Part shown: piece by piece, positions 11,525 through 26,785 of the stretch | Layout of the letters: every line of letters begins with the position of its first letter | Numbering within the stretch: position 1 is the stretch's first letter | DNA from: Acidimicrobiia bacterium | GTDB taxonomy: Bacteria; Actinomycetota; Acidimicrobiia; Spongiisociales; UBA5794 | DNA length: 64,000 nucleotides | Reading direction: 5' to 3' | NCBI GenBank assembly: GCA_041605955.1 | Contig: JBFIXI010000010.1 | Location: 12,653-76,652 of the forward strand | Made by a program: the position numbers and the translations under genes | The notes under the pieces: generated by a model | The model's input: the letters and a program-made list of their open reading frames with translations, nothing else | Databases searched by the model: none | Told to the model about the DNA's origin: nothing

Positions 11525-12294
11525 CCGCCCGACCCAAGCTCGCGGTGTGGAAGTTCGCTTCCTGCGACGGCTGCCAGCTGACCCTGCTCGACTGCGAGGA
11601 CGAGCTGCTCGCCATAGCCGGCGTCATCGAGATCGCTTATTTCCCAGAGGCCACTCGCGGTGAAGTGGCGGGTCCCTACGACCTCTCCTTGGTGGAAGGC
11701 TCGATCACTACGCCGCACGACGCCACCCGCATCCAAGAGGTGCGCCGCATCTCGAAGACCGTCGTCACGATTGGTGCCTGTGCCACCGCCGGAGGCATCC
11801 AAGCGCTGCGCAACTGGGACGACGTCGACGCCTTCCTCAGCATCGTCTACGCCCATCCCGAGTACATCGAGACGCTGGAGACATCCACGCCGATCTCCGA
11901 CCACATCGCGGTGGACTTCGAGCTACGCGGCTGCCCGATATCAAAGGCACAGTTGATCGAAGTCATCGAGGCCTTTCTCCACGGCCGCAAGCCCAACGTG
12001 CCGGGTCACAGCGTGTGCGTCGAATGCAAGCTGCGGGGCACGGCATGTGTGATGGTCGCCCATGGTGTCCCCTGCCTGGGGCCGGTGACCCAGGCCGGAT
12101 GTGGCGCCATCTGTCCGGCCTACAACCGCGGCTGCTACGGCTGCTTCGGGCCGGCAGAATCGCCGAACATGGGGGCAATGGGAGACTGGTGGAAGAGTCT
12201 CGGGGTAAGCGACGCCGACTTGGCCAGAGCGCTGCGGACCTTCAACGGATACGCACCTGAATTCAGGGAGGCCAGCGAGGCTTATGAGCAGTGA
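11521..12294 (+). CDS. [NiFe] hydrogenase small (delta) subunit
   Basis: N-terminal CDGCQ and GACATAGG motifs of NuoB/hydrogenase small subunits and distal Cys clusters; GTGA-coupled to the gamma subunit. Confidence 0.85.
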
Positions 12295-13576
12295 ACGAGA
12301 GATCGCCGTCGACTACCTGGCCCGGGTCGAAGGCGAGGGCGCCATGTATCTCCGGCTCAAGGACGACGAGGTACTGGATCTGCAGTTCAAGATCTTCGAG
12401 CCCCCTAGGTTCTTCGAAGCCTTTCTGCGTGGACGCCGCTTCCAGGAAGCGCCCGACATCACCGCCCGCATCTGTGGCATCTGCCCCGTCGCCTACCAGA
12501 CGAGCGCCTGCAACGCATTGGAGGACGCTGCGGGAGTGCAGGTGGGCGGCCAGCTGCTAGCGCTGCGCCGCATGCTCTACTGCGGCGAGTGGATCGAGAG
12601 CCACGGTCTGCACGTCTTCCTCCTCCACGCTCCCGACTTCCTCGGCTACGAGAGCGGCATCGCCATGGCCGCGGACCACTTGGAGCGCGTCGAGGCTGGA
12701 CTGCGGCTGAAGAAGACCGGCAACCACTTGATGACGGTGCTGGGCGGCCGCGAGATTCACCCAATCAACGTGCGGGTAGGCGGCTTCCATCGGGTGCCGA
12801 GCAAAGCCGAGCTGATGGAGCTCCGGTCCGACGTGGAATGGGCACTCGAGACTGCCATCGACACCGTGGACTGGGTATCGGGCTTTCCGTTTCCCGAATT
12901 CGAGCGCGACTACGAGTTCGTTGCCCTGCAGCATCCCGACAGGTACGCCATCGAGGACGGGCGTGTCGTGTCCAGCCGCGGGTTGGACATCGGCGTCACG
13001 GAGTGGAACAACCACTTCGAGGAGAGCCATGTGCCCTGGTCGAACGCGCTCCATGCCACGATCAAGGAGCGAGGCTCCTATCACGTGGGGCCGATGGCGC
13101 GCTACAGCCTCAACTTCGAGCAGCTCACGCCGGCGGCTCAGGCGGCGGCGGTCGGCGCCGGATTGGGCCCTACGTGCACAAACCCTTTCCAGAGCATCGT
13201 CGTGCGAGCGGTCGAGATGGTCTTTGCCTGCGAGGAGGTGCTGCGGTTGATCGACGCCTACACCCCTCCCCCGCAGCCGGCGCTGGAGGTCCCCGCCAAT
13301 GGGGCGACGGGGCACGGGGCCTCGGAAGCGCCCCGCGGAATCCTCTACCACCGCTATCAAGTCGACGAAGCCGGGCTGATCGCCGACGCGCAAATCGTCC
13401 CTCCCACGTCACAGAACCAGCTCAGCATCGAGGACGATCTGCGTAGCTTCGTTCCGCAGTACTCCCAGCTCGACGACGAGCAATTGCAGTGGCAACTGGA
13501 GCAGGCGATCCGCAACTATGACCCCTGCATATCTTGCGCGACGCACTTCCTGGATCTCACGGTCGAACGGGAATGA
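12284..13576 (+). CDS. [NiFe] hydrogenase large (alpha) subunit, group 3b type
   Basis: N-terminal [10 protein letters not shown] and C-terminal DPCISCATH Ni-Fe ligand motifs; 430 aa. Confidence 0.9.
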
Positions 13577-13995
13577 AACGAATGGTCATCGGCGTCGGCA
13601 ATCCTCTTCGCGGCGACGACGCTGCCGGACTCGAGGTGGCCAGTCGGCTGCAGCGAGTCACGGCCCATCAGTCCCCCCACGGTGGATTCGAGCTGATGGA
13701 CCTCTGGCTGGGCGCCGATGAGGTGGTCATCGTGGATGCAGTGCGCGCCGCAGCTCCACCGGGGACGGTCCTCCGGTTCGACCCGATTGCCGAACCTCTG
13801 CCGCAAACGATGTTCGCTTCCACCCATGATCTCGGCCTGGCCGAGACCATCGAGCTGGCTCGGCACCTCGGCCGACTGCCCGCGCGGATGGTCGTCTACG
13901 GAATCGCTGCGGAGTCGTTTGCCACCGGCACCGGCATCTCCGCCGAGGTCGCGGCGGCGATAGACCAGGTGGTCACGGAAATCGACCATGCATGA
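13573..13995 (+). CDS. hydrogenase maturation endopeptidase (HycI/HoxW family)
   Basis: MVIGVGNPLRGDDAAG N-terminus typical of hydrogenase C-terminal processing proteases; ATGA overlap with the large subunit. Confidence 0.8.
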   Translation: MKRMVIGVGNPLRGDDAAGLEVASRLQRVTAHQSPHGGFELMDLWLGADEVVIVDAVRAAAPPGTVLRFDPIAEPLPQTMFASTHDLGLAETIELARHLGRLPARMVVYGIAAESFATGTGISAEVAAAIDQVVTEIDHA

Positions 13996-14245
13996 GAGCG
14001 GGCTCGTCGCCGACCTCGTCGCTCACGCAGAGGCGATGGCGACCGACCCCAGCCTCATCACTGCGTTGCGGTTTCGGATCGGTGCAATGGCTGCGGTGAC
14101 GCCGGAGGGATTGCGCCATGGCGCCGCCGAGCTGGCCGCCGCCCGCTGGGGGCATCGGCCGACCATTGAGATCGAGCAGTCCAGCGACGTCCACGACGCA
14201 GGCGCCCTGACCGTGACCCTGACTGCGATGAGGGTTGAGGGGTAA
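13988..14245 (+). CDS. hypA: HypA-like nickel metallochaperone N-terminal domain lacking the zinc finger
   Basis: Starts MHESGLVADLV (the MHE Ni-binding N-terminus of HypA/HybF), but is only 85 aa and contains no Cys residues; overlaps the protease stop. Confidence 0.45.
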   Translation: MHESGLVADLVAHAEAMATDPSLITALRFRIGAMAAVTPEGLRHGAAELAAARWGHRPTIEIEQSSDVHDAGALTVTLTAMRVEG

Positions 14246-14248
14246 CGG

Positions 14249-14473
14249 ATGTGCGTTGCAGTCCCGGGTCGCGTCGAGTGGATCGGTCCGGCGACGGCGG
14301 AGTCGATTCCGGCCCGGATCAACATCGGCGATCGTATGCTGGACGTCGACCTGATCACGCTTCCCCAAGCGCGGATCGGTGATTTCGTTGTCGCCCACTC
14401 CGGCTACGCGGTTCGCCTCGTGTCTGCGACCGAGGCCGCGGCGACACGGCAGCTCCTGGACGGCAGCGACTGA
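14249..14473 (+). CDS. hypC: hydrogenase assembly chaperone HypC/HupF
   Basis: Canonical MC(V)A(V)PG N-terminus (MCVAVPGRV), 74 aa. Confidence 0.8.
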   Translation: MCVAVPGRVEWIGPATAESIPARINIGDRMLDVDLITLPQARIGDFVVAHSGYAVRLVSATEAAATRQLLDGSD

Positions 14474-14487
14474 TCGGAGAAGTCCCT

Positions 14488-14868
14488 ATGCAGCTGGGCC
14501 GGCACCTTCACCTTGCCGGACTCGTGGTGGGCGGAGCGGCTTCTGCGATGTGGGTGTTCGTGCTGACCGCCTCCGCCGTCTCGGAGGGCGCTGCGGCATT
14601 CGGCTTCGAGGAGGCGGTGCTGGCGGTCTTGATAGTCGTCGCCACCACGGGTGTGGCCTTCGCGCTGGCCGACGACATCTTGGGTGGATTCGTTTGCGTA
14701 CTGGGCGGCGTTGCGCTGGCCGGATTCGCCACGGTCAGCGCGGGCCGTAATGAGGGAATGTCCATTGCAGTATCTGCCGGCCCGTTCCTACTGGCCGGCG
14801 TGCTGTTCATCGGTGCTCACATCGCCACACAGCGAGCCCGTAGTCGCGAGCCCGGTTCGTCTCACTGA
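14488..14868 (+). CDS. hypothetical membrane protein
   Basis: Three hydrophobic helices; follows the hyp genes. Confidence 0.4.
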   Translation: MQLGRHLHLAGLVVGGAASAMWVFVLTASAVSEGAAAFGFEEAVLAVLIVVATTGVAFALADDILGGFVCVLGGVALAGFATVSAGRNEGMSIAVSAGPFLLAGVLFIGAHIATQRARSREPGSSH

Positions 14869-15882: not shown

Positions 15883-17556
15883 GTGTCAATCGCCAGGACT
15901 TCCAGACGCCGCGGTAGGGTCGCAGCAGTTGCTCTGCTGACCAGTTTGTTGACCGCCACATTGTCTGGAACCGCTTCGGGCCATCCGGACGACGATCCCG
16001 GGGCGACGGGAAAGCGCGTCCCAGTGCCCGAATCCGAGGCGGAGCGCCATTTCGCCCTCATCTCCGCAATGGAGCGACAGGGAATGCAGGCGCAGCTCCC
16101 GGCGGTCGGGCTGACTCTTTGCACCAACGGAACGGCCGCCGGCTACGCATGCGACGGTGTGGACCTGGCGGCCTCCCTGCCGCTCTCACAGCTCGGAGGT
16201 GGCGAGGGAAACGACATTTGGGGTTGGACTGATCCGGCCACGCTGCGCGAATTCGCTGTCATGGGGCGCACCGGAGGCGTCACGTTCGTCGAGATCACCA
16301 ACCCGATCAACCCCGAGGTGGTCGGCACTCTCCCCACCCACTCGGTGTCGTCGGTATGGCGCGATCTCAAGGTGTACGACTCGTACGCATTCATCGTGTC
16401 CGAGGCTCCCAACAGCGGCCTTCAGGTTTTCGACTTGCGTCAGCTGGTCTCACAGCGGCAGCGGCCTCACGTCTTCACCGAGACCGCTTGGTTGGGTGCG
16501 TTCTCCACGTCTCACAACATCGCCATCAACGAAGCCAGCGGCTACGCCTACGTCGTCGGAACCAACACCTGCAGCGGTGGCCTGCACATGGTCGATCTAC
16601 GCAACCCTGAATCTCCCCGGAGCGCCGGCTGCTACGGCGGTGACGGTTACACGCACGATTTGCAATGTGTCGACTACTCAGGGCCCGACGCGATCTATCA
16701 GGGTCGTGAGATCTGTTTTGCTGCCAACGAGGACACGTTGACCATCGTCGACGTCACCGACAAGGCAAGCCCGGCTCTGGTTTCACGAACCGGATACGTT
16801 GGCAGCGGTTACGCCCACCAGGGATGGCTCACCGACGACCATGCCTATTTCTTGCTCGGTGACGAGCTCGACGAACTGAACAACGGCGGCGCGACCAAGA
16901 CCTATGTTTGGAACGTCTCGAGCCTCGCCCGACCTACGGTCGAATTCGTCAACCGCGGCACCACCGGCGCCATTGACCACAACCAGTACGTGCGGGACGG
17001 TCGTACATATCAGTCCAACTACAAGGCTGGACTGCGCGTTCTGACCGCGGACAGCCTGGCTGCAAACTCTATGGATGAAGTGGCATTCTTCGACACCCAC
17101 CCGGAGAGCAATGGCGCTCAGTTCGACGGCACCTGGAGCAATTATCCGTACTACCGGGCCAACGTGGTCGCCGTCTCGACGATCGACCGGGGCCTGTTCA
17201 TCCTCGGCTACGAGGGCGAGGCGGGATCGCTCCATGTCGCAGACATCGACCACAAGACAGCCGTGCGCCCGGCGGGCAGGTGGCGGGCCATCAGCCAGGT
17301 GGAGGTGCACGACCGCACGGGCAGCCCGGTTGAGGACGTCGCCGTCACGGTGCGATGGTCGAACGGCCGCGTCAAGACCTGTGTCACCGGGCCCGGGGGG
17401 CGCTGCCGCACCCGCCTGCTCCGGTTCCCCAGACATGCCAAGGTCGCATTCCGGATAATCGATCTCGAGCTCGGCTCCATGTCCTACGCCTCGTGGCTGA
17501 ACGAAGACGCCGACGGCGACAGCGACGGTTTCCGCGATACGGTGCGCCGTCCCTGA
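15883..17556 (+). CDS. secreted choice-of-anchor-B / LVIVD-repeat beta-propeller protein
   Basis: Signal peptide (RRRGRVAAVALLTSLLTATLSGTASG); repeated hydrophobic-strand/Asp motifs typical of the family; 557 aa. Confidence 0.55.
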   Translation: MSIARTSRRRGRVAAVALLTSLLTATLSGTASGHPDDDPGATGKRVPVPESEAERHFALISAMERQGMQAQLPAVGLTLCTNGTAAGYACDGVDLAASLPLSQLGGGEGNDIWGWTDPATLREFAVMGRTGGVTFVEITNPINPEVVGTLPTHSVSSVWRDLKVYDSYAFIVSEAPNSGLQVFDLRQLVSQRQRPHVFTETAWLGAFSTSHNIAINEASGYAYVVGTNTCSGGLHMVDLRNPESPRSAGCYGGDGYTHDLQCVDYSGPDAIYQGREICFAANEDTLTIVDVTDKASPALVSRTGYVGSGYAHQGWLTDDHAYFLLGDELDELNNGGATKTYVWNVSSLARPTVEFVNRGTTGAIDHNQYVRDGRTYQSNYKAGLRVLTADSLAANSMDEVAFFDTHPESNGAQFDGTWSNYPYYRANVVAVSTIDRGLFILGYEGEAGSLHVADIDHKTAVRPAGRWRAISQVEVHDRTGSPVEDVAVTVRWSNGRVKTCVTGPGGRCRTRLLRFPRHAKVAFRIIDLELGSMSYASWLNEDADGDSDGFRDTVRRP

Positions 17557-17573
17557 ACCTGTCGCCAGGCGGG

Positions 17574-19025
17574 CTAAGAAGCTGTCCGGTCGAACTTCAG
17601 GTAGGTGACGACCCCTGCGGTCTCCTCGGGCGAAGGCTCCGCAGTCATCGCCGGCGACGAGGGCAGCGTGAGGCGGAAGCGACTCCAACCACCGGCGTAG
17701 TCGTAGTGGAGATCGCCGTTCATGAGCTGCGCCAGCTGGCGAGACACCGCCAGGCCTACCCCCACCGAGGCCACGGCGCCCACCGAGGTGACGGTTTGGT
17801 GGCCTCGCTCGTATAGCTCGAAGATGGACTCCCGATGCTCGGGGGGCACTCCCAATCCGTTGTCGAGCACGGTGATGTGGGTGACCGTCCCCACGTGCTC
17901 CGACTGCACTCGGATCGACTGGCCCCCGTAGCGCAGAGCGTTGGTGATGAGGTTGCGGATGATCTGTTTGAGTCGCAATGGATCGGCCCAGACCGACCCA
18001 TTGACGGCAACGGCCAGATCGCGGTGGGGTTGCTCGGTCGTGGCTACCTCAGCGACCCGCTCGATAATCGGCAGCAGGTCGGTCTGGCGGGGAGCGACGC
18101 TCACCATGCCAATCTCAGAGCGGGCCGCCACGAGAAGGTCTTCGACCATGTCGGAGAGTTCACCCGACTCGCGGGCGATGTAGCCGATCAACTCGTCCCG
18201 CAACGCTTCGTCCATAACGTCCTTCTGATCGAGCAGAGTCTCGGCACTGGCATACACCGTGGTCAACGGAGTCCGCAGCTCGTGGCTGACCGAGGCGAGG
18301 AACTCGTCCTTGCTGCGTATCAGCGCCGCCAAGCGGTCCTCGGCCTCCTTACGCTCCGTGATGTCCACGATGGCAACGGCCACGCGCGACAAGTCGCGCT
18401 TGCCGTCGACCCGCGGCGCCGACCAGTTGAGGATCCCGTACAGCGGCGACTCGTCCCAGCGCTTCCCGGCAAACTCGAACGAGGTACGCGATGCTCCGTC
18501 CCACACGGCCTGGAGTTCGGCCCGAAAAGAGTCGAGCACCGCCGGGTCGTCAACGTAGAACTCGCCGTCCATGCTCCCGACCAGGGCTTCCTTGTCCGGA
18601 GCTCGCATCAGGACCACCGCCGCTGCGTTGACATCGACGATGCGGATCATCGACACCAGCCTCTGCAACTCCGCCGGCCGCTCGTCGAGATAGCGCTGCA
18701 GATGAGTAACTCCCGAAGAACGGAGCCAGGACAGCCACGCTCCCACCTTGGAGAAGTCCTCTTCCCAGATGGCGATTGGTGACTCGTTGAACAGGTTGCG
18801 GTAGTGCGACTCCCGCAGATCACCCACGCGGCGGATCTCCTCGTTCAGGCTCTGCATCTCAGTCGACGAGATCCGCATCGACCGTTCCATCAGATAGCGA
18901 CTGCGATCGATCTCGTCGTAGTAGCTGCTCAGCCTCTCCAGAAGACGTCCCCAGGTGGCCGCGTCCGGCACCGCCCCGGCTTCGAGGCCGAGGCGACGCA
19001 GCTGCCTGGCGAGGACCTCATGCAT
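17574..19025 (-). CDS. cytoplasmic PAS-domain sensor histidine kinase
   Basis: PAS-like segment (NLFNESPIAIWEEDF), H-box SHELRTPLT, and N, G1, G2 ATPase motifs; no TM segment. Confidence 0.8.
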   Translation of the reverse strand: MHEVLARQLRRLGLEAGAVPDAATWGRLLERLSSYYDEIDRSRYLMERSMRISSTEMQSLNEEIRRVGDLRESHYRNLFNESPIAIWEEDFSKVGAWLSWLRSSGVTHLQRYLDERPAELQRLVSMIRIVDVNAAAVVLMRAPDKEALVGSMDGEFYVDDPAVLDSFRAELQAVWDGASRTSFEFAGKRWDESPLYGILNWSAPRVDGKRDLSRVAVAIVDITERKEAEDRLAALIRSKDEFLASVSHELRTPLTTVYASAETLLDQKDVMDEALRDELIGYIARESGELSDMVEDLLVAARSEIGMVSVAPRQTDLLPIIERVAEVATTEQPHRDLAVAVNGSVWADPLRLKQIIRNLITNALRYGGQSIRVQSEHVGTVTHITVLDNGLGVPPEHRESIFELYERGHQTVTSVGAVASVGVGLAVSRQLAQLMNGDLHYDYAGGWSRFRLTLPSSPAMTAEPSPEETAGVVTYLKFDRTAS

Positions 19026-19038
19026 CGTTACTACGCTC

Positions 19039-20205
19039 CTAGGCCACCATCTCGGTCAGAGTCGTGAGAGTCATCGTCTGATTGTGCAGGTCGCACGAAC
19101 CTGACGTGTAGGGAGATATCTCTCCGTACGAGTAGAAGCCCACTTGATGAGTGCCGGGCGGCAACGCTTCCAGCACGGCTTCCAATTCCTCCTCGGTGCG
19201 CTCGCCCAGCACTAGGCGCCGCCCTACACAGGACACTGCGATACACAGGGTATCGCCCACGCCGCCCAGGGCGCCATATGCCTCCGGGCCATGCCACCCG
19301 CCGGCGGCGGCGAACTCGGCGGCGGACTCGGCTCCGCCGATGATGCGCTCGAAGTTCGCCCGCATCAGCTGGGCGTGATGCCCCTCGGGGATGTCTCCGG
19401 CGAATGTGACGCTCTGGTCTTGTTCGTTGACCGCCAGAATCGTCCGCACCAGCTTGGTCTCGCCCGCCGGATCGCTGACCTCGAGCGGGAACAGCAAGCC
19501 GGTCGCCGGCAGCCCCGAAGCCAGGTCGCCGAGGTATTGCTTGTAGAGGGCCAAGGCCGGCCGCCCGTCGAGCTCGAACAGCACGCTGCCGGCCGAGCGA
19601 GTTACCACTCGCTCCGGGCCGAATATGTCCCACCCGCCTCGAGATCCGTGTCCAAACCGAAGCTGGGATCCGTAGAAACCCACAGCGGCGAGACCGTCCT
19701 GGGCCGGCTTGCCGTCGATCAGCACCCATGTGCGCTCGAAGCGATCGCCGTCGCCGGCAAGTCCGCCGGTGATTGGAACCTCCGCGCCGATGGAGTGGTT
19801 GAGGCCCGCAGCAAGCTCGCTGCCGTTGACGTCGAGGCCTGCGGAGAGCACCACGACCCCTACGAGATCGTCTCCGCCGAGCGCGGCGCCGACGGAGGAT
19901 CCCGCTTGCCGGGACGTGGCCGCCGAGATCGTGCCCGTACTGAGCCGCAGCTCGGTGGTTGCGAATCGGACGACGGCCACCGTGAGAGATTCATCCTCTA
20001 GCTGCCGACCATGGATCTCGCCCGACGTGGAACACCCTACAACGACGCTGGCCCGATAAACCTCAGCCAGCTCGCCCAGCGGCTCATGGTCGTCTAGGTA
20101 GGAGGATGCCCCGAACGCGACAACCAGCGTTCGCGGCGAGTCCCATTTGGGTAGCGTCGCCGACCAACCCCGGCCACGCGTATAAGAGAGCGTACGAACG
20201 TCCAC
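19039..20205 (-). CDS. FIST-domain signal-sensor protein (FIST_N plus FIST_C)
   Basis: 388 aa with architecture and conserved Gly-rich blocks of FIST sensors; located directly upstream of the histidine kinase on the same strand. Confidence 0.65.
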   Translation of the reverse strand: MDVRTLSYTRGRGWSATLPKWDSPRTLVVAFGASSYLDDHEPLGELAEVYRASVVVGCSTSGEIHGRQLEDESLTVAVVRFATTELRLSTGTISAATSRQAGSSVGAALGGDDLVGVVVLSAGLDVNGSELAAGLNHSIGAEVPITGGLAGDGDRFERTWVLIDGKPAQDGLAAVGFYGSQLRFGHGSRGGWDIFGPERVVTRSAGSVLFELDGRPALALYKQYLGDLASGLPATGLLFPLEVSDPAGETKLVRTILAVNEQDQSVTFAGDIPEGHHAQLMRANFERIIGGAESAAEFAAAGGWHGPEAYGALGGVGDTLCIAVSCVGRRLVLGERTEEELEAVLEALPPGTHQVGFYSYGEISPYTSGSCDLHNQTMTLTTLTEMVA

Positions 20206-20304
20206 ACCCCACTCCTCTCCGAATGGCGAACGCTAACACTTACCAATATCTGTCGGCAGCGCCGCCTTCGGAGTTGAACCTTTGACTGAAAGGGATATCC
20301 GGGA

Positions 20305-21288
20305 TCAGTCCCGGCGATTGTGCCGACCGGCGTCGAATCGCCCCGGCATGGTCGCAACCGCGCCGCCGTGGTCGACTGCCCCGACCATATCCAGGGCCGC
20401 AGTGACGACGGCGCGATGGCGCGCTTTGTCCCCCACCGGACCCACTGGCCTCCCAAACGGATGTCGAGTGACCAGCGTGCGGGGCAGTGCCATCACCTCG
20501 GCGACGTGACGAAAGGCGGCTACGTAGATACCGACTGTGCTGATGCCGGCTTGCTCGGCTGCCCTCGCGACGTGCCCGACCGACACGTGACAAACGGGTC
20601 ACACCGGCACCAGCAGCAGAGCGTCGAGCCGGTCCCCCGCCAGGGCCTCGACCCATTCCGGCAACACCTGGAGTAGCCGACCCTGCGCCGCCGCTCCCGG
20701 GAACGAATAGAGATTCTCGGCAACCTCGCCGATCCTGCCCTGTGCCGCCAGCTCGAGCAGCGCATCACGGGGAAACACCACGTTGTGGTCCTTCACCGCA
20801 CTGCGGATGTCGTATCCACCGTGACGCACCCGCAGCTCGTCCGCCGAAGTGTCACGCGGAATCGTCGACAACACAGGAGCTTCCCGCAGGAAGTCGAAGA
20901 TGCGCTCCACGGCCTCGACTTGCGTCATGTCGGCAACCCCGAATGGGGCTGGATCATCCCCAGCCACGAAATGGCCGGAGGACGTCACCATGCCGACCCG
21001 GCAATCCGCCAGCGGCCGACGCAGCGGGGTGAACGGAGCTTGCTCGTACCGATAGCTGCGCTCCGCACCCGCGTACGCAGTGATCTGCCACTCGACGATC
21101 AGATCGTGGAGCCGGGTCAGGTCGCCGGTGTCGAGGCTGGTGCCAATCTCCGACAGCATCTGGCGCAACGCTTCTGCGGCCGCATCTGGTGTCAGTCGCT
21201 TGAGGAACTTGAACGTGAGGTCGGTACGTTCACCGTAGGCAAAGGAGTCCTTGAACTCGTCGAAGGTTTCGGAATCGGCCCGATCCAT
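20305..21288 (-). CDS. GrdB-family (glycine/sarcosine/betaine reductase component B-like) protein with in-frame TGA; candidate selenoprotein, or a nonsense pseudogene
   Basis: ORFs 20599..21399 and 20305..20586 are in the same frame, separated only by TGA at 20599-20601. Read-through gives ...ALLLVPV-U-PVCHVSVGHVARAAEQAGISTVGI..., i.e. a UxxC redox motif. The upstream half carries GrdB-like CRVGMVTSSGHF. The ATG at 21288 overlaps the stop of the upstream CoA-binding gene (TGATG). Confidence 0.5.
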
Positions 21289-21728
21289 CAGCCGTGATGC
21301 CGGGCTCGCACCATGATGCAAGCGTCGATCAGCGCCTCGAACTCGTTGGCGTCGACGTAGCTCCTCACCTCGGGAGACGCGGATCCGGGCTGGAGCCAAA
21401 CGAGCTTGTGACCGAGGGCCTGGGCCTCGGCGAGCACCTGCAGGGTGACCGAAGGGGGGACAACGAAGTTGATGATGGTGGGAGCTTCTGGCAGAGAGGC
21501 CAGGTTGGGATAGGCCGGATCCCCGTCGACGGTCTCCCGGTTCGGGTTGACCGCGAACACCTGGTATCCCTTGCGCTTCAAGTCTCGATAGACGATGGAG
21601 CCATATTTGCTCGGATCATCGTTGGCGCCGACCACGGCAACCGTGGCGCCGGGTTCGAGCAGTGCGGCTGAGACCGGATCCATCTTCCTCACTCTGCGAT
21701 ATTGCGGCACCGCAACGCTAGCGGCCAC
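21288..21728 (-). CDS. CoA-binding domain protein (YccU-like)
   Basis: Rossmann-like VAVVGANDDPSKYGSIVYRDLKRKGYQVFAVNP; alternative start at MDPVSAALLEP. Confidence 0.7.
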   Translation of the reverse strand: MAASVAVPQYRRVRKMDPVSAALLEPGATVAVVGANDDPSKYGSIVYRDLKRKGYQVFAVNPNRETVDGDPAYPNLASLPEAPTIINFVVPPSVTLQVLAEAQALGHKLVWLQPGSASPEVRSYVDANEFEALIDACIMVRARHHG

Positions 21729-23598
21729 GCCAGCTGATCACGGTCAGCAGCGTGCGCAGCAGGATCGCGAGATCGGTTCGCACCGAGCGCTCAGCAACGT
21801 AGCGCGCGTCGAGATGGGAACGCTGCGCCATACTGATCTCATCCCTCCCCGACACTTGCGCCAGCCCCGTCACTCCCGGCTTCACCGTGAATCGAATATG
21901 GTCGCGGCCGACGAGGTCGGCTTCTGCAGGAACCAACGGGCGTGGCCCCACGAGGCTCATGGATCCGCGGAGCACATTCCACAGGTTGGGTAGCTCGTCG
22001 AGCGATGAGGCTCGCAGCAGGCGACCTACCCGCGTGATGCGCGGATCTTGCCGTATGCGAAGATCTCCCTCGTCGCGGCCGGCTGCGGCCAGCCCTTCGA
22101 GATGCGCCACGAACACCGCCTCGCCCTCGTCGGCGCGCATTGTGCGCAGCTTGACCATGGCGAACGGCTTGCCGTGGTGACCCACTCGCTCTTGTCGGAA
22201 GAACGCGGGGCCCCGCGAGTCCAGCTTGATCAGAATCACGGCGACCAGCAGGAACGGGGCAGACAGCACGAGGAGCACAATGGCCAACCCGATGTCCAGA
22301 GAACGTTTGGCAAACTCGAAGCGGCGCGCCGAGCCGCTCAGCCAAACCACAGCCGCAACCAATGCGCCCAGAGCGGCCGCCTCGCCGGTGAGGAACGCCA
22401 TGCTGACCCGGAAGAGCGCATCGCCACCAGTGAGCGCAATGGTGATGACGGCAACGCTGACGCCCGCCAACCACGCGGCCGCCAGGCGGATCGGCTCGCC
22501 CCGCGCCACCAAGACCTGGCCTACGAAGAGTCCGGCTCCTGCAAACACGACGCCCGCTGCGGTCAGTGCGGCCACCTGGGGCGGCGGGCGGAAGTCCGCG
22601 CCGAAGGCCGCAGCGACCAACGGGGCACCGGCCAGCCAGCCTGCGGCCGCGCCGACCGTTGCCAGCAACGCAGCAGCAATGCCGATCCCGCGACCCCAGG
22701 CACGTAGCTCCTGCCGCTCGCCCCGAGCCGCCATCTCGGTGAACGGAGGCAGGATTCTGGCCAGCAGGTTGTAGCCGAACGTGAGCGGCGCTCTCGACAG
22801 GGTGAACGTCGCAAACGCAACGCTGACGGCGACTTCTCCCCCGCCGAGACCCGCCACCATCAGCGGTCCGGCCAGCAGAAGGGCCTGCGACGCGGCCGAC
22901 GACAACACGAGCCCGGATAGCAGGCCGCGCTCGCCGAGAGCCGCCGCCTCGGCAGGACTGACCGGGCGCCGATTGGCCGGGGGTGAGCGCAATGGCCGCC
23001 AGAGGAGAATCACCAATGGACCCACCACCAGTCCCAGCGCGAACCCTGAAGCGGTGGGACGGATCATCAGCACGGCGGCCGCCACCGCCAGCCGCACCAG
23101 CGAGGCAGCACCGCTCGACGTGCCGTAGGCGCGGAAACGGCGCCATCCCGCCAAATGACCGCGACCGATCGCGAAAATGGCATGCGTTGCGATCGTGGCC
23201 GCCACGAACGCGACGAAGCGCATGTCGCCTCTCAGCAGTGAATCAACCCCCGCCCATGCATAGGTAACCGCGGCCAACCCGGCTGCGCCAGCCAACGCCC
23301 ACACCCGGGATGGCACTCCGGCTGCCGAGCGATCGAGGGTGAGGCGTCGCACCACCAGTTGCTCGATGGGCAGCAGCACCACGATGAACACGAGGAAGTG
23401 GATGGTCAGCAGCACCGACACGGGGGCGAACGCATCAGCGCCCAACGCCCGGCCGCCGACGAACTGATAGATATAAGCGGCTATCCCCGCCACCAAGCTC
23501 CCGGCCAGGATGTAACCCGTACCGTCTTCGGTCAGGTGCGCGTAGCGGGTACGCGTCGAGCTCGGATCGAAAGCGCCGGCAGGCGGCGGCTGGCTCAT
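21718..23598 (-). CDS. polysaccharide biosynthesis protein: polytopic membrane domain fused to a C-terminal polyprenyl-phosphate sugar phosphotransferase (Bac_transf)
   Basis: C-terminal about 190 aa has the WbaP/WecA-type transferase signature (LDELPNLWNVLRGSMSLVGPRP, KPGVTGLAQV); N-terminal about 430 aa has about 12 TM helices. Confidence 0.7.
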   Translation of the reverse strand: MSQPPPAGAFDPSSTRTRYAHLTEDGTGYILAGSLVAGIAAYIYQFVGGRALGADAFAPVSVLLTIHFLVFIVVLLPIEQLVVRRLTLDRSAAGVPSRVWALAGAAGLAAVTYAWAGVDSLLRGDMRFVAFVAATIATHAIFAIGRGHLAGWRRFRAYGTSSGAASLVRLAVAAAVLMIRPTASGFALGLVVGPLVILLWRPLRSPPANRRPVSPAEAAALGERGLLSGLVLSSAASQALLLAGPLMVAGLGGGEVAVSVAFATFTLSRAPLTFGYNLLARILPPFTEMAARGERQELRAWGRGIGIAAALLATVGAAAGWLAGAPLVAAAFGADFRPPPQVAALTAAGVVFAGAGLFVGQVLVARGEPIRLAAAWLAGVSVAVITIALTGGDALFRVSMAFLTGEAAALGALVAAVVWLSGSARRFEFAKRSLDIGLAIVLLVLSAPFLLVAVILIKLDSRGPAFFRQERVGHHGKPFAMVKLRTMRADEGEAVFVAHLEGLAAAGRDEGDLRIRQDPRITRVGRLLRASSLDELPNLWNVLRGSMSLVGPRPLVPAEADLVGRDHIRFTVKPGVTGLAQVSGRDEISMAQRSHLDARYVAERSVRTDLAILLRTLLTVISWRGR

Positions 23599-23607
23599 CG
23601 GGCCAGG

Positions 23608-24144
23608 CTACTGGTGGTCGGGCACTCGCGAGCTGTATCTCTGGTAGTAAGTCTCGGGGGGATTCTCGACAAGAGTATCCCGCAGATCGATCGTGACCGT
23701 CGTCAGATCGAGCTCGTCCTCTTGGTCGAGTGGATCGGTCCAATCCTCGTCGGGCTCGGCGGCCTCGGGCTGGGTGGGCTCGTCCAGCTCGGGCCGCACC
23801 GACGCCCGCGCCGTGTACTTGGAGGCCACCGGGGCTTGGTAGCCGGGAGGATCAGCATCCGGGCCGGTGGGTGGTTCGGACGCGGGTTCGGGTCGCGTCG
23901 GGAGGTCCGTCGTGTAGTAGCGGCCCTTCCGGGTGGCCGCAGTTCCGGAGCTCGAAGCACCCGGGTTGATCTCCTTGTTGGGTCGCATCGCTACCCCACT
24001 AACGCGGTGCCCGAACATCGTAGCCCCAACGTCACCGACACGTAATGGCCTAGAAGGTGTCAAAACGCGACGGCCCGGGCTGACTAGTCCCCCCGGAGCC
24101 CGCCGAAATGGCACCCCAGCATCTGGGATTCCGGGCCGATACAT
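23608..24144 (-). CDS. hypothetical Pro-rich protein
   Basis: ORF only; acidic C-terminus; weak support. Confidence 0.25.
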   Translation of the reverse strand: MYRPGIPDAGVPFRRAPGGLVSPGRRVLTPSRPLRVGDVGATMFGHRVSGVAMRPNKEINPGASSSGTAATRKGRYYTTDLPTRPEPASEPPTGPDADPPGYQAPVASKYTARASVRPELDEPTQPEAAEPDEDWTDPLDQEDELDLTTVTIDLRDTLVENPPETYYQRYSSRVPDHQ

Positions 24145-24149
24145 ATCAC

Positions 24150-25646
24150 ATGGGACCGAAGGGTGGAATCACCACGCACAGCCTGCGGCGTGGCTTGGTC
24201 GCCGTCTCCGTCGCCGGAGGCGTCGGCATGATGTTGGTCGCCTTTGCCCTGGCCTTCTCCAATGCCGCCTCGGCACGCGAGATTGCATCGAGTTCCCAGG
24301 AGCTGCAGTGGGCGAACGCTACCGCAGGTGCCAGCGCGGTAAGCCGGGCGGCGGTCAACCAGGCGCTCGTGTTCACCGTAGATCATGAGCTCGGGGTCGC
24401 CTCCGCCGACGCCGCCCAACTGGCCCGCGCCGAGGCGACGAGCAGCCTCGCTGTGCTCGAACAGTACGCGGGCGCCGCGCCTGACGACGCACGCGCTGAC
24501 GTACGGTCGATCCGAGAGGTCATTGCATTGGCGCGCACTGCACTGACCCAGATGGAGCGCGGTGACATTCGCGACGCCGATACCACCCTCACCCGAGAGT
24601 TCGAGCCGGCGTACGCCGCCGCGGCCGCGACTCTCAACAAGCAACAGCTGGCGCAGGCGGCCCGTATCGATCAGGCCGCCTCCAGCGCCGGGCGCACTGA
24701 GAACATAACCCGCCTCATCGTGACTCTGCTGATCCCCGGCGCGGCCATCATCATCCACCAGCTCATCATTCGTCGCCAGTACCGCGAGCGTGAAGTGCAC
24801 ATGAAGGCTCAGGTCGAGGCTGAGCGAGAGCTCAACCGCACGAAGGACGAGTTCATCGCCGGCATCTCTCATGAGCTGCGCACCCCGCTCACGAGCATCT
24901 ACGGCTTCAGTGAGTACTTGCTCGAAATCGGCCTGATCGATCCGACAGAGTCCCTCGAGCTGATCACCATGATCAACGACGATTCGGCCGAGCTGTCGCG
25001 TATGGTCGACGACCTGCTGGCCGCAGCCCGCATCGACGCCGAAGCAATCTCATATGAGATAGAGCCGCTCGAGGTGATGGGAGAGGTCGAGCACCTCGTC
25101 GACCAGGTCAGGCGCATGGGCTCGGCCATCGACGTTCTCGGAGCGCGCACGGTGGCGCTCGCCGATCGGTCGCGACTGCGCCAAGTGATGCGCAACCTGA
25201 TCTCCAATGCAGAGCGTCACGGTGGTGAGCACGTCGAAATCGACGTTTCGGTTCACGAAGGCAAAGCTGCGATTCGGGTCATCGATGACGGGGCCGGAGT
25301 TCCTGCCGAGATGAAGGAGCGACTGTTCAAGCGGTTCGTTCATGACCCCGACACCACGCTCACATCCGGCAGTGTCGGGCTGGGTCTGGCGATTGCCCGG
25401 CAGATCGCCCGAGACATGGGCGGCGACGTCACCTACGAGCGAACCCTTGGCCTGACGCTCTTCACGGTGCTGCTCCCCCTGGCCCCGGCCGATGCCGTTC
25501 CGCTGCCCCGAGTCGCGGTACCGGCAGCCCAGATCTACGCGCCGCCGTCCCAGAACAACGGCTCGGCCGACCATGAACCGATACTCATGATCGATTCCGA
25601 GGAACCCGACCCGGTGGCGACTGCTCCCGACAAGGTGACCTTCTGA
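24150..25646 (+). CDS. membrane sensor histidine kinase (2 TM, extracytoplasmic helical sensor domain)
   Basis: TM1 about residues 20-45 and TM2 (LIVTLLIPGAAIIIHQLII) flank a roughly 170-aa sensor domain; H-box SHELRTPLTSI; HATPase motifs. Start taken at MGPKGG; an upstream ATG at 24108 is also possible. Confidence 0.8.
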   Translation: MGPKGGITTHSLRRGLVAVSVAGGVGMMLVAFALAFSNAASAREIASSSQELQWANATAGASAVSRAAVNQALVFTVDHELGVASADAAQLARAEATSSLAVLEQYAGAAPDDARADVRSIREVIALARTALTQMERGDIRDADTTLTREFEPAYAAAAATLNKQQLAQAARIDQAASSAGRTENITRLIVTLLIPGAAIIIHQLIIRRQYREREVHMKAQVEAERELNRTKDEFIAGISHELRTPLTSIYGFSEYLLEIGLIDPTESLELITMINDDSAELSRMVDDLLAAARIDAEAISYEIEPLEVMGEVEHLVDQVRRMGSAIDVLGARTVALADRSRLRQVMRNLISNAERHGGEHVEIDVSVHEGKAAIRVIDDGAGVPAEMKERLFKRFVHDPDTTLTSGSVGLGLAIARQIARDMGGDVTYERTLGLTLFTVLLPLAPADAVPLPRVAVPAAQIYAPPSQNNGSADHEPILMIDSEEPDPVATAPDKVTF

Positions 25647-26785
25647 TGGGGCGACGCGCCGGACTGTCGGCTCTGCTCGTCGCATGGGTGGCGATCGCGC
25701 TGCTGGCTCCGACGGCCAGCGCCGCCGCCGCCGGATCCGGTTACCAGTACCGAGACCGTTTTGACTCCGGCAACTACTCGGGAAACCTCGGATCCCAGCT
25801 CTTCACCGGCGACTGGAGAGAGCACGATGATGGTGGTGGGCACGTCGGCGGGTCGATCTTCATCGAAGGAACCGACGATTGCCCGACCGAGCCCTGCGTC
25901 CTGTTCGAGATCCAAGAGCGCTTCATGACCGGCAAGGGTCTTTCCAGGGGCGCAGATATCGGCGGAGCCGCTACCGCCAGCTTCCGCTTCAGCTACACAC
26001 TCGACCTGGACGAGCCCACCCAGGGGATTCTCCAAGTGGCCGTGTACAACGGAGTGACCTGGGCACCGATCGATGCGATCCCGTTATTGGACAACGCAGC
26101 CGGGGGTCCGTACACCCGCACTTACAACGTCGTGCCACACGCTCACGCTGACTTCGCCGTCGGATTCTTCGCTCACGGTTACTGGGACGCGGCGCTGTTC
26201 GTCGACGACGTCAAGATCTGGGGCGAATGGGACGAGGGGCCGCCGCCGAGCACGACCACGACCACTCTCGTGCCGCCGGTGACGACGCTGCCGCCTCCAA
26301 CGACCAGCACGCTCCCGCCCCCACCCACGACGACAACCAAGCCGCCCCCACCAACAACCACCACGACCACCACGACGGCGCCGCCCGTCACTACCACCAC
26401 TACTACAGCGCCCAGCACCACCACCACGGCTGCGCCCCCCGCTACCACCGCTCCGCCGACCACGACGACTACGACCGTGGCCCCAGGAACGACCACTCGG
26501 CCGCCGCCGCCGGAGGCACCGCTGGTGGAAGACGAGCGCTACACCGCCAAGGACGCCCTGGCCCTGACGCTCAACGACGGCGTTATGGCGTTGCCCACCA
26601 AGCGGGACGACATCCCCGAGCCCAGCCCGGTGACACAGATCATGGCTTCGATCACCACGACGGCGATCACGGTCCGCTCCCACTTCCTGTCGGCAATGGC
26701 CCTCGGTCTGCTCATCGCAGTCGCTGCGGTCTGGGGCCTGGGCCGACGCAGCGAGCGCCCCTGGTCGGCTCCCGGCATCGACTGA
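25646..26785 (+). CDS. secreted protein with a PT-rich linker and a C-terminal membrane anchor
   Basis: Signal peptide (LLVAWVAIALLAPTASAAAAG); a roughly 190-aa globular domain; about 90 aa of Pro/Thr low-complexity sequence; C-terminal TM helix (AMALGLLIAVAAVWGL) plus basic stop-transfer residues; its ATG overlaps the kinase stop (TGATG). Confidence 0.6.
   Translation: MGRRAGLSALLVAWVAIALLAPTASAAAAGSGYQYRDRFDSGNYSGNLGSQLFTGDWREHDDGGGHVGGSIFIEGTDDCPTEPCVLFEIQERFMTGKGLSRGADIGGAATASFRFSYTLDLDEPTQGILQVAVYNGVTWAPIDAIPLLDNAAGGPYTRTYNVVPHAHADFAVGFFAHGYWDAALFVDDVKIWGEWDEGPPPSTTTTTLVPPVTTLPPPTTSTLPPPPTTTTKPPPPTTTTTTTTAPPVTTTTTTAPSTTTTAAPPATTAPPTTTTTTVAPGTTTRPPPPEAPLVEDERYTAKDALALTLNDGVMALPTKRDDIPEPSPVTQIMASITTTAITVRSHFLSAMALGLLIAVAAVWGLGRRSERPWSAPGID

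Follow-up and report, generated by a model that had tools for sequence, protein, structure and literature searches.

The minus strand of the 64-kb window considered here (the whole stretch of DNA that was analysed, 64,000 nucleotides of contig JBFIXI010000010.1 from an Acidimicrobiia bacterium) carries a gene related to the PrdB and GrdB selenoproteins, whose reading frame is broken by a single TGA that is a candidate codon for selenocysteine (Sec). The frame opens at an ATG (21288–21286), runs through 229 sense codons to the TGA at 20601–20599 and continues through 97 further sense codons to a second TGA at 20307–20305 (Table 1). A preliminary description of this DNA had joined two same-frame open reading frames (ORFs) into one gene, and this holds: nothing except the TGA interrupts the frame, and the NCBIfam model for PrdB aligns across it. 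The upstream ORF is in the frame described but was given too early a start; MDRADSETF is the N-terminus of the homologues and of independent gene calls (P0001, of 229 aa, among them), which puts the start of the gene at 21288 and not at the TTG of the longer ORF at 21399. This ATG and the TGA that ends the upstream CoA_binding_2 gene overlap as TGATG, the coupling put forward in the same description. Translation across the TGA gives LLLVPV-*-PVCHVSVGHVARAAEQAGISTVGIYVAAFRH, placing a UxxC arrangement in frame as U230-P-V-C233, again as described (the longer peptide across codon 230 reads ...DALLLVPV-U-PVCHVSVGHVAR, and the part encoded 3′ of the UGA includes the tail peptide AAEQAGISTVGIYVAAFR). 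Were the downstream piece to be translated separately, its earliest start codon would be the GTG at 20586, only 4 codons past the TGA.

Table 1. Coordinates of the candidate selenoprotein gene, its hairpin and neighbouring genes in the window, and of the selD gene found beside a related gene.
Feature	Position	Strand	Remarks
Complete (predicted) selenoprotein gene	20305..21288	-	327 codons: 326 sense plus UGA-Sec; then TGA stop
In-frame UGA, codon 230	20599..20601	-	read as Sec (U of U-P-V-C)
N-terminal part	20602..21288	-	229 codons; the whole protein of gene callers
C-terminal part	20305..20598	-	97 codons plus stop; translated only with UGA recoding
Cys233 codon (UGU)	20590..20592	-	presumed resolving Cys of the UxxC pair
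Selenocysteine insertion sequence (SECIS)-like hairpin	20570..20588	-	RNAalifold consensus, 81 sequences
Hairpin 5′ arm	20588-20582		ACGUGUC
Hairpin loop	20581-20577		GGUCG
Hairpin 3′ arm	20576-20570		GGCACGU
Extended lower stem	20562..20598	-	20593-20590 with 20568-20565; CCC 20598-20596 with GGG 20564-20562 (minimum free energy fold)
CoA_binding_2 gene, 131 aa	21288..21683	-	PF13380, E = 3.7e-32; TGA stop 21290-21288 overlaps the selenoprotein ATG
Bac_transf protein, 626 aa	21718-23598	-	C-terminal sugar transferase domain, long hydrophobic N-terminal region
FIST_N/FIST_C protein	19039-20205	-	99-nt gap after the selenoprotein gene
PAS/HisKA/HATPase_c kinase	17574-19025	-	13-nt gap after the FIST gene
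selD of related locus L066 (coordinates of that locus)	13504-14532	-	in-frame TGA 14487-14485 at the active-site position (KCAG-U-ASK)

Beyond the TGA, GC content by codon position (0.78/0.54/0.74) is similar to that of the N-terminal part (0.71/0.45/0.77). This region is under purifying selection: codons 13–60 after the TGA have a median dN/dS of 0.275 in comparisons with the window sequence (56 usable pairs), a value drawn from pairs in which dS is near saturation and from the ungapped block downstream of the TGA, indels being present upstream. When the other genes of the window were scanned for TGA read-through, only the PrdB/GrdB-like gene looked coding past its TGA; the remaining long extensions consist of the next gene in the same frame.

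A search for homologues in a database of 5.8 billion proteins, of which the best 120 matches were considered, returned about 115 sequences of 224–251 aa that end ...LVPV. Automated annotation thus splits or truncates the gene, as had been anticipated, with the 93-aa tail called as a separate ORF in four Logan contigs. The gene calls of NCBI, JGI, ENA and Logan hold a stub of the 229-aa type for almost the whole family, and the domain, length and active-site data are therefore wrong for hundreds of database entries. Five full-length homologues of 328–478 aa (P0002, P0004, P0005, P0006 and P0023) are contiguous across the position and read LVP[VG]-C-PVCHVS[VI]GHVAR, with a Cys aligned to the UGA that is encoded by TGC in their DNA (P0006 left out). 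An exhaustive HMMER search with the Cys form P0002 found many cluster representatives that stop at query position 229–231; the more distant full-length relatives mostly have C-P-x-C-H at the Sec site, a few carrying D, S, E or G there. Most of the distant family members aligned also have the Cys of position 233, with Ser or Asn in several, and the T and G of its codon are invariant in an alignment of the window gene with its closer relatives (alignment A3, columns 25–26).

These closer relatives come from a scan of one genome per species (GTDB) with the patterns RVRH[GA]GYD[IV] and FK[ND]SF[SAY]YGxR, from which the Sec site is excluded. The 80 loci retained are the best 80 of 180 matches, a sample biased to close relatives of the window gene, with Cys forms existing further out; they span Acidimicrobiia and other Actinomycetota, Gemmatimonadota, Chloroflexota/Anaerolineae, Deltaproteobacteria/Desulfobacterales, Spirochaetales, Acidobacteriota and others. 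The same codon is TGA in 81 of 81 sequences (the 80 loci and the window) and never TAA or TAG, and the TGA is followed in these sequences by P-[VMI]-C-[HY]-x-S-V-G-H and then by 83–102 further conserved codons. The true stops of the orthologous genes are mixed (TGA 47, TAG 21, TAA 11); the restriction to TGA therefore belongs to codon 230 and is no general habit of these genes. Two of the loci (L066 and L071) belong to one metagenome-assembled genome (MAG), that of Anaerolineaceae isolate JTS-AC169 (contigs JBGSJZ010000004 and JBGSJZ010000050), which therefore has two paralogous Sec copies. As to the window gene itself, 45 blocks of independent SRA assemblies, besides the NCBI contig, contain precisely its 229-aa product; all 23 contigs read encode it, and the six places shown have identical neighbours. 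A sequencing error would not yield one and the same truncated protein in so many separate assemblies, and the TGA is therefore real.

Downstream of the UGA we find a candidate SECIS hairpin. Over the ungapped alignment A3 (93 columns, 81 sequences), the RNAalifold consensus is a 7-bp stem (columns 29–35 with 41–47) closed by a 5-nt loop, NGUNG; 10 nt lie between the UGA and the stem, and 17 nt between the UGA and the loop. The loop reads GGUCG in 47 sequences, CGUGG in 30, CGUCG in 3 and UGUAG in 1, with the central GU always present and its G, at the second loop position, invariant (a G also occupies the first position in 47/81). A lower stem that extends the hairpin is partly conserved, with pair 24-52 present in 28/81 sequences and pairs 25-51, 26-50 and 27-49 in 60–79/81.

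The hairpin is written in the codons of the peptide C-H-V-S-V-G-H-V, and only two of its stem pairs, those underlain by the Val and Gly wobble positions, are set by synonymous choice. Both are frozen: column 33, the Val wobble, holds G in 81/81 sequences, against 40% GUG elsewhere in these genes, and column 42, the Gly wobble, holds A or G in 81/81, against 42% elsewhere; the Ser within the hairpin is always UCN, compared with 72% elsewhere. Replacements in the peptide are accompanied by changes in the pairing base—for Val-to-Ile replacements (G to A, column 46), 8/10 sequences have U as the wobble base of the partner His codon, against 3/64 otherwise (Fisher p = 4.5e-7), and for Val-to-Met replacements (column 31) CAU encodes the partner His in 3/3 (Fisher p = 2.3e-4), p-values that overstate independence because the sequences are related. 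As compensatory double changes in the stem, CG to UA occurs 8 times and GC to AU 3 times. Four Cys-form genes (L089–L092, with TGC) provide a further comparison, in that two of them break exactly the two pairs that depend on synonymous choice (GUC; GGC), a pattern consistent with conversion of Sec to Cys or with relaxed RNA constraint. As read from this alignment, the peptide and its putative SECIS RNA have co-evolved, and the alignment neatly illustrates how a SECIS can lie within the codons for an active-site motif and change in step with them.

The protein belongs to a known superfamily. Pfam GRDB (PF07355) matches residues 148–226 with 32.6 bits against a gathering cut-off of 22, and most homologues also have a precomputed PF07355 match. 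The best-scoring curated family is NCBIfam PrdB (TIGR04483), which aligns residues 84–317 and so spans the UGA (E = 1.2e-28), at 100.2 bits against an equivalog cut-off of 300; the GrdB model TIGR01917 scores 40.9 bits against 602 and the subfamily model TIGR01918 scores 40.1 against 65.45. The earlier label of a GrdB-like protein is thus right at the level of the Pfam family, but the protein falls below the NCBIfam cut-offs for true GrdB and true PrdB. Residues 1–85 form a family-specific helical N-terminal extension beyond the PrdB model. An AlphaFold2 model of the Cys homologue P0002 (53–54% identical; pLDDT 82.5, pTM 0.75) places residue 230 between a strand (225–229) and a helix (235–248), preceded by a four-helix N-terminal region (helices 11–74). 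Searches of PDB sequences with the single sequence and with a profile found no relative.

We conclude that the locus is, very probably, one gene for a 327-residue UGA-Sec selenoprotein of the PrdB/GrdB (PF07355) superfamily. What carries this conclusion is directly observed: the single frame, the conservation of the UGA, the pairing of Sec with Cys among homologues, the conserved hairpin, the selection on the C-terminal part and the placement in the family. The proposal of the preliminary description that this TGA is a Sec codon is borne out by the 81 of 81 TGA codons, by the Cys at the aligned position of contiguous full-length homologues and by a 7-bp stem with a 5-nt loop downstream of the UGA that is conserved in 81 sequences, and the TGA itself by the independent assemblies; the refuting checks of that description that were run all favoured Sec.

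A number of points pull the other way. Neither selA, selB, selD nor a tRNA-Sec gene was found in the 64-kb window (which holds no tRNA genes of any kind), and the insertion of Sec in the source organism would follow from comparison of sequences. On the RNA side, amino acids alone dictate 5 of the 7 hairpin pairs, covariation over the whole structure is modest, the p-values carry the relatedness noted above, and the Cys-form genes retain 6–7 of the 7 pairs (a “fossil” SECIS). The folding energy compared with shuffles gives z = -1.4 (91 nt) and z = -1.0 (42 nt), not significant alone; the case for the SECIS rests on comparative data because the folding energy of so GC-rich a sequence is not significant. 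A scan of the whole window with Rfam at gathering thresholds gave no match, Rfam being without a general bacterial SECIS model. The redox mechanism and the reductant proposed below would be drawn from analogy with PrdB and from gene neighbourhoods that are weak and not universal. Concerning the machinery in relatives, tblastn searches of the window and 86 loci with SelA (C-terminal 380 aa), SelB and SelD of Escherichia coli returned only the selD of L066, and a tRNA-Sec search of loci L007–L066 found none. This selD, in an Anaerolineaceae MAG, lies ~6 kb from the PrdB-like selenoprotein gene and would itself encode a Sec-containing SelD because it has an in-frame TGA at the active-site position. 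Within the class Acidimicrobiia, selA, selB, selC and selD are reported in all 84 complete Actinomarinales genomes (bioRxiv 10.64898/2026.04.03.716425); these genomes and the selD of L066 speak, indirectly, for the Sec reading.

Were the TGA a genuine stop, translation would yield a truncated 229-aa protein, perhaps accompanied by a 93-aa protein with its own start at GTG 20586, and the locus would be a split gene or a pseudogene. Gene callers do annotate it so, the GTG lies only 4 codons past the TGA and sel genes were not seen in the window; yet a decaying or split gene would not retain TGA, to the exclusion of other codons, in 81 of 81 sequences across phyla, and P-V-C-H, whose four codons separate the TGA from the GTG, ranks with the best-conserved positions of the family. 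With the tail under purifying selection, the Cys-containing homologues contiguous and the frozen synonymous sites indicating an RNA signal, we regard a genuine stop as extremely unlikely. That the TGA is one base away from TGC or TGT, in a family where Cys forms exist, raises the thought of a sequencing or assembly error, or of a strain-specific nonsense mutation of a Cys codon; this is effectively refuted, its probability negligible, by the recurrence of the same 229-aa product in 45 blocks of independent SRA assemblies and the NCBI contig and by the TGA in all 80 loci of other species. The UGA might alternatively be decoded as something other than Sec, through near-cognate read-through (Trp, Cys or Arg) or reassignment in the lineage, a suggestion for which it can be said that the Sec reading comes from sequence and that no sel machinery was found in the window. 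UGA otherwise acts as a normal stop codon here: 38 of the 59 window ORFs picked as likely genes end with it, as do 47 of 79 orthologues of the selenoprotein gene, while at codon 230 it is aligned to the catalytic Cys of homologues, has a hairpin at SECIS distance and, in one relative (L066), has a Sec-type selD nearby; decoding as another amino acid is accordingly very improbable.

A different question is whether the gene encodes an authentic PrdB of D-proline reductase, or a GrdB of glycine, sarcosine or betaine reductase, serving amino-acid reduction of the Stickland type. PrdB is the best NCBIfam match, the UxxC motif is as in PrdB (PMC2398784 Table 2; PMC13188914), JGI names some homologues “D-proline reductase (dithiol) PrdB” and surveys class such genes as “proline reductase” (PMC1088965). 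We nevertheless consider this identity very improbable, in view of scores below the PrdB, GrdB and TIGR01918 cut-offs (100 versus 300 bits, 41 versus 602 and 40 versus 65), an extra N-terminal domain of 85 residues and a UxxCxxS motif in place of the UxxCxxC of GrdB. The gene neighbourhoods searched contain no PrdA/GrdE-type, GrdA or PrdC-type neighbour in the window and none that recurs among the 80 loci, and most of the hosts are members of Acidimicrobiia, Chloroflexota and Gemmatimonadota, not Stickland fermenters. The protein is very probably a stand-alone PrdB-like protein, not the B subunit of D-proline or glycine reductase, and its function is probably not proline reduction.

The genes next to the selenoprotein gene are less constant than the gene itself. 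The preliminary description had set it in an operon with a FIST sensor and a PAS histidine kinase, and both genes are indeed present on the same strand; they are, however, not conserved in the 80 related loci, and the unusual regulatory context of that description is a local accident of gene order and no trait of the family. No FIST homologue occurs in these loci and kinase matches are not adjacent, and we reject a functional tie of either to the selenoprotein on the grounds of this absence from all 80. The CoA-binding gene is directly upstream in only 6 of the 80, all closer actinobacterial (Acidimicrobiia-type) relatives, such that its candidacy as a family-wide partner is likewise rejected and the association is lineage-specific. 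A consensus scan for promoters and terminators over 17000–24200 gave nothing above the shuffled expectation; co-transcription of the selenoprotein gene with its same-strand neighbours is possible. Elsewhere in the family, subsets of the loci have a same-strand neighbour at ~110 nt or less, either an S-adenosylmethionine-dependent methyltransferase (Methyltransf_31/11), directly upstream in about five loci (L034, L035, L037, L077 and L029), or a class-I pyridine-nucleotide disulfide oxidoreductase, adjacent in 3–4 Chloroflexota or Spirochaete loci (L059, L082, L085); Chloroflexota loci have G6PD and 6PGDH-like genes nearby, and CMD/AhpD-like genes occur in some loci. The NADPH-linked redox neighbours are suggestive as to function, a weak hint that comes from subsets of the loci.

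Further genes of the window lie outside this argument. The Bac_transf gene is syntenic in L007 and L009 (70–72% identity). Two HisKA/HATPase_c kinases, one at 24108–25646 (+) and the PAS kinase already listed, flank the locus within 7 kb; the former has a close homologue in the relative L007, and no response-regulator gene was identified among the window ORFs scanned. At 25646–26785 (+) there is a 379-aa ORF with a Thr/Pro-rich low-complexity stretch (TTTTTLVPPVTTLPPPTTSTLPPPPTTTTKPPPP...), a predicted C-terminal hydrophobic segment and no Pfam match. A 430-aa protein resembling the large subunit of [NiFe]-hydrogenases (PF00374) is encoded at 12284–13576 (+), and is a Cys form rather than the [NiFeSe] Sec form because its C-terminal motif is DPCISCATH.

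Taking the gene as that of a selenoprotein, a mechanism can be proposed. The SECIS hairpin, situated inside the coding sequence, would recruit SelB and Sec-tRNA(Sec), which would read the UGA at codon 230 as Sec. The product would adopt a Rossmann-like α/β fold in which Sec230 and Cys233 sit at the end of a β-strand and the start of a helix, forming the putative U-x-x-C selenol/thiol redox centre of a reductase that works alone. If PrdB is a guide, the Sec selenolate may attack the substrate and Cys233, in the presumed role of resolving residue, may resolve the adduct to a selenenylsulfide, which a cellular dithiol or an NADPH–disulfide-reductase system could then re-reduce. Members of the clade share a length of ~327 aa, the helical N-terminal extension, the motif U-P-V-C-H-V-S-V-G-H, the near-constant use of Sec and the want of a PrdA partner, and are spread over Acidimicrobiia, Chloroflexota, Gemmatimonadota, Deltaproteobacteria and other groups. 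On a broader proposition we are evenly divided: that the clade is a distinct uncharacterised selenoenzyme and not a proline reductase, working alone or with an NADPH-linked flavoprotein disulfide reductase, with its SECIS locked into the active-site peptide. If so, changes of Val to Ile or Met within the clade must be compensated at the level of the RNA. PrdB-like selenoproteins are among the commonest in ocean metagenomes and carry the label “proline reductase” by homology; since the window gene and its 80 relatives have no PrdA partner in the neighbourhoods searched and score too low for either PrdB or GrdB, this label may not describe what so abundant a Sec family does.

Comparison with the characterized enzymes defines what is shared and what is not. 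PrdB of Clostridium sticklandii and Clostridioides difficile and the window protein both have PF07355 and U-x-x-C (PMC2398784, PMC13188914), and coordinate arithmetic on the TIGR04483 alignment, which is not residue-level, would put the window UGA within a few positions of the PrdB Sec. In PrdB, Sec U151 attacks D-proline at its α-carbon while PrdA binds this substrate through its pyruvoyl group, and a U151C variant was inactive (PMC11229817). PrdB, however, is ~241 aa long, whereas the window protein has 327 residues with a helical N-terminal extension of ~85; the window gene has no prdA (the pyruvoyl proprotein), prdC, prdH or prdR nearby, nor any partner conserved across the 80 loci; and PrdB hosts are Stickland fermenters, unlike those of the window family. 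The GrdB/GrdF/GrdH proteins (TIGR01917, NF040794, NF040795, TIGR01918) have in common with the window protein the Pfam GRDB match and a Sec at the homologous position. Their models score very weakly on it (40–46 bits against cut-offs of 65–800), GrdB is ~430 aa long with UxxCxxC (PMC13188914) where the window protein has U-P-V-C-H-V-S, and the context genes grdA, grdC, grdD and grdE are absent from among the neighbours of the window gene.

The closest likeness is to selenoproteins recorded in genomic and metagenomic surveys. In the Sargasso Sea data, with 42 Sec and 1 Cys forms, “proline reductase PrdB” (pfam07355, UxxC) ranked third in abundance among known selenoprotein families (PMC1088965); in the Global Ocean Sampling (GOS) data PrdB was among the top families, with 235 Sec against 110 Cys (PMC2398784). 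“PR” selenoproteins have been described in Anaeromyxobacter and Geobacter (PMC1794560) and as five copies in the Olavius delta-1 symbiont (PMC1976440), and reviews of 2022 and 2026 include the PrdB-like family (PMC9312934, PMC13188914). Like the window gene, the survey PrdB selenoproteins have pfam07355 and UxxC, mostly use Sec and not Cys, and come from non-clostridial, often aerobic or marine bacteria; they may belong to the very subfamily of the window gene, that with the N-terminal extension and U-P-V-C-H-V-S-V-G-H. One of our loci (L043) comes from the Olavius-associated Delta 1 organism, and its gene is most probably of the same kind as the “PR” genes reported there. PrdB-like UxxC selenoproteins have been reported since 2005 and the window gene is a further member, a finding that is not new at the level of the family and that alters nothing of what is known in kind; its value lies in the correction of annotation and in the example of co-evolution between SECIS and peptide, of which, as of the absence of a PrdA partner, the surveys give no account.

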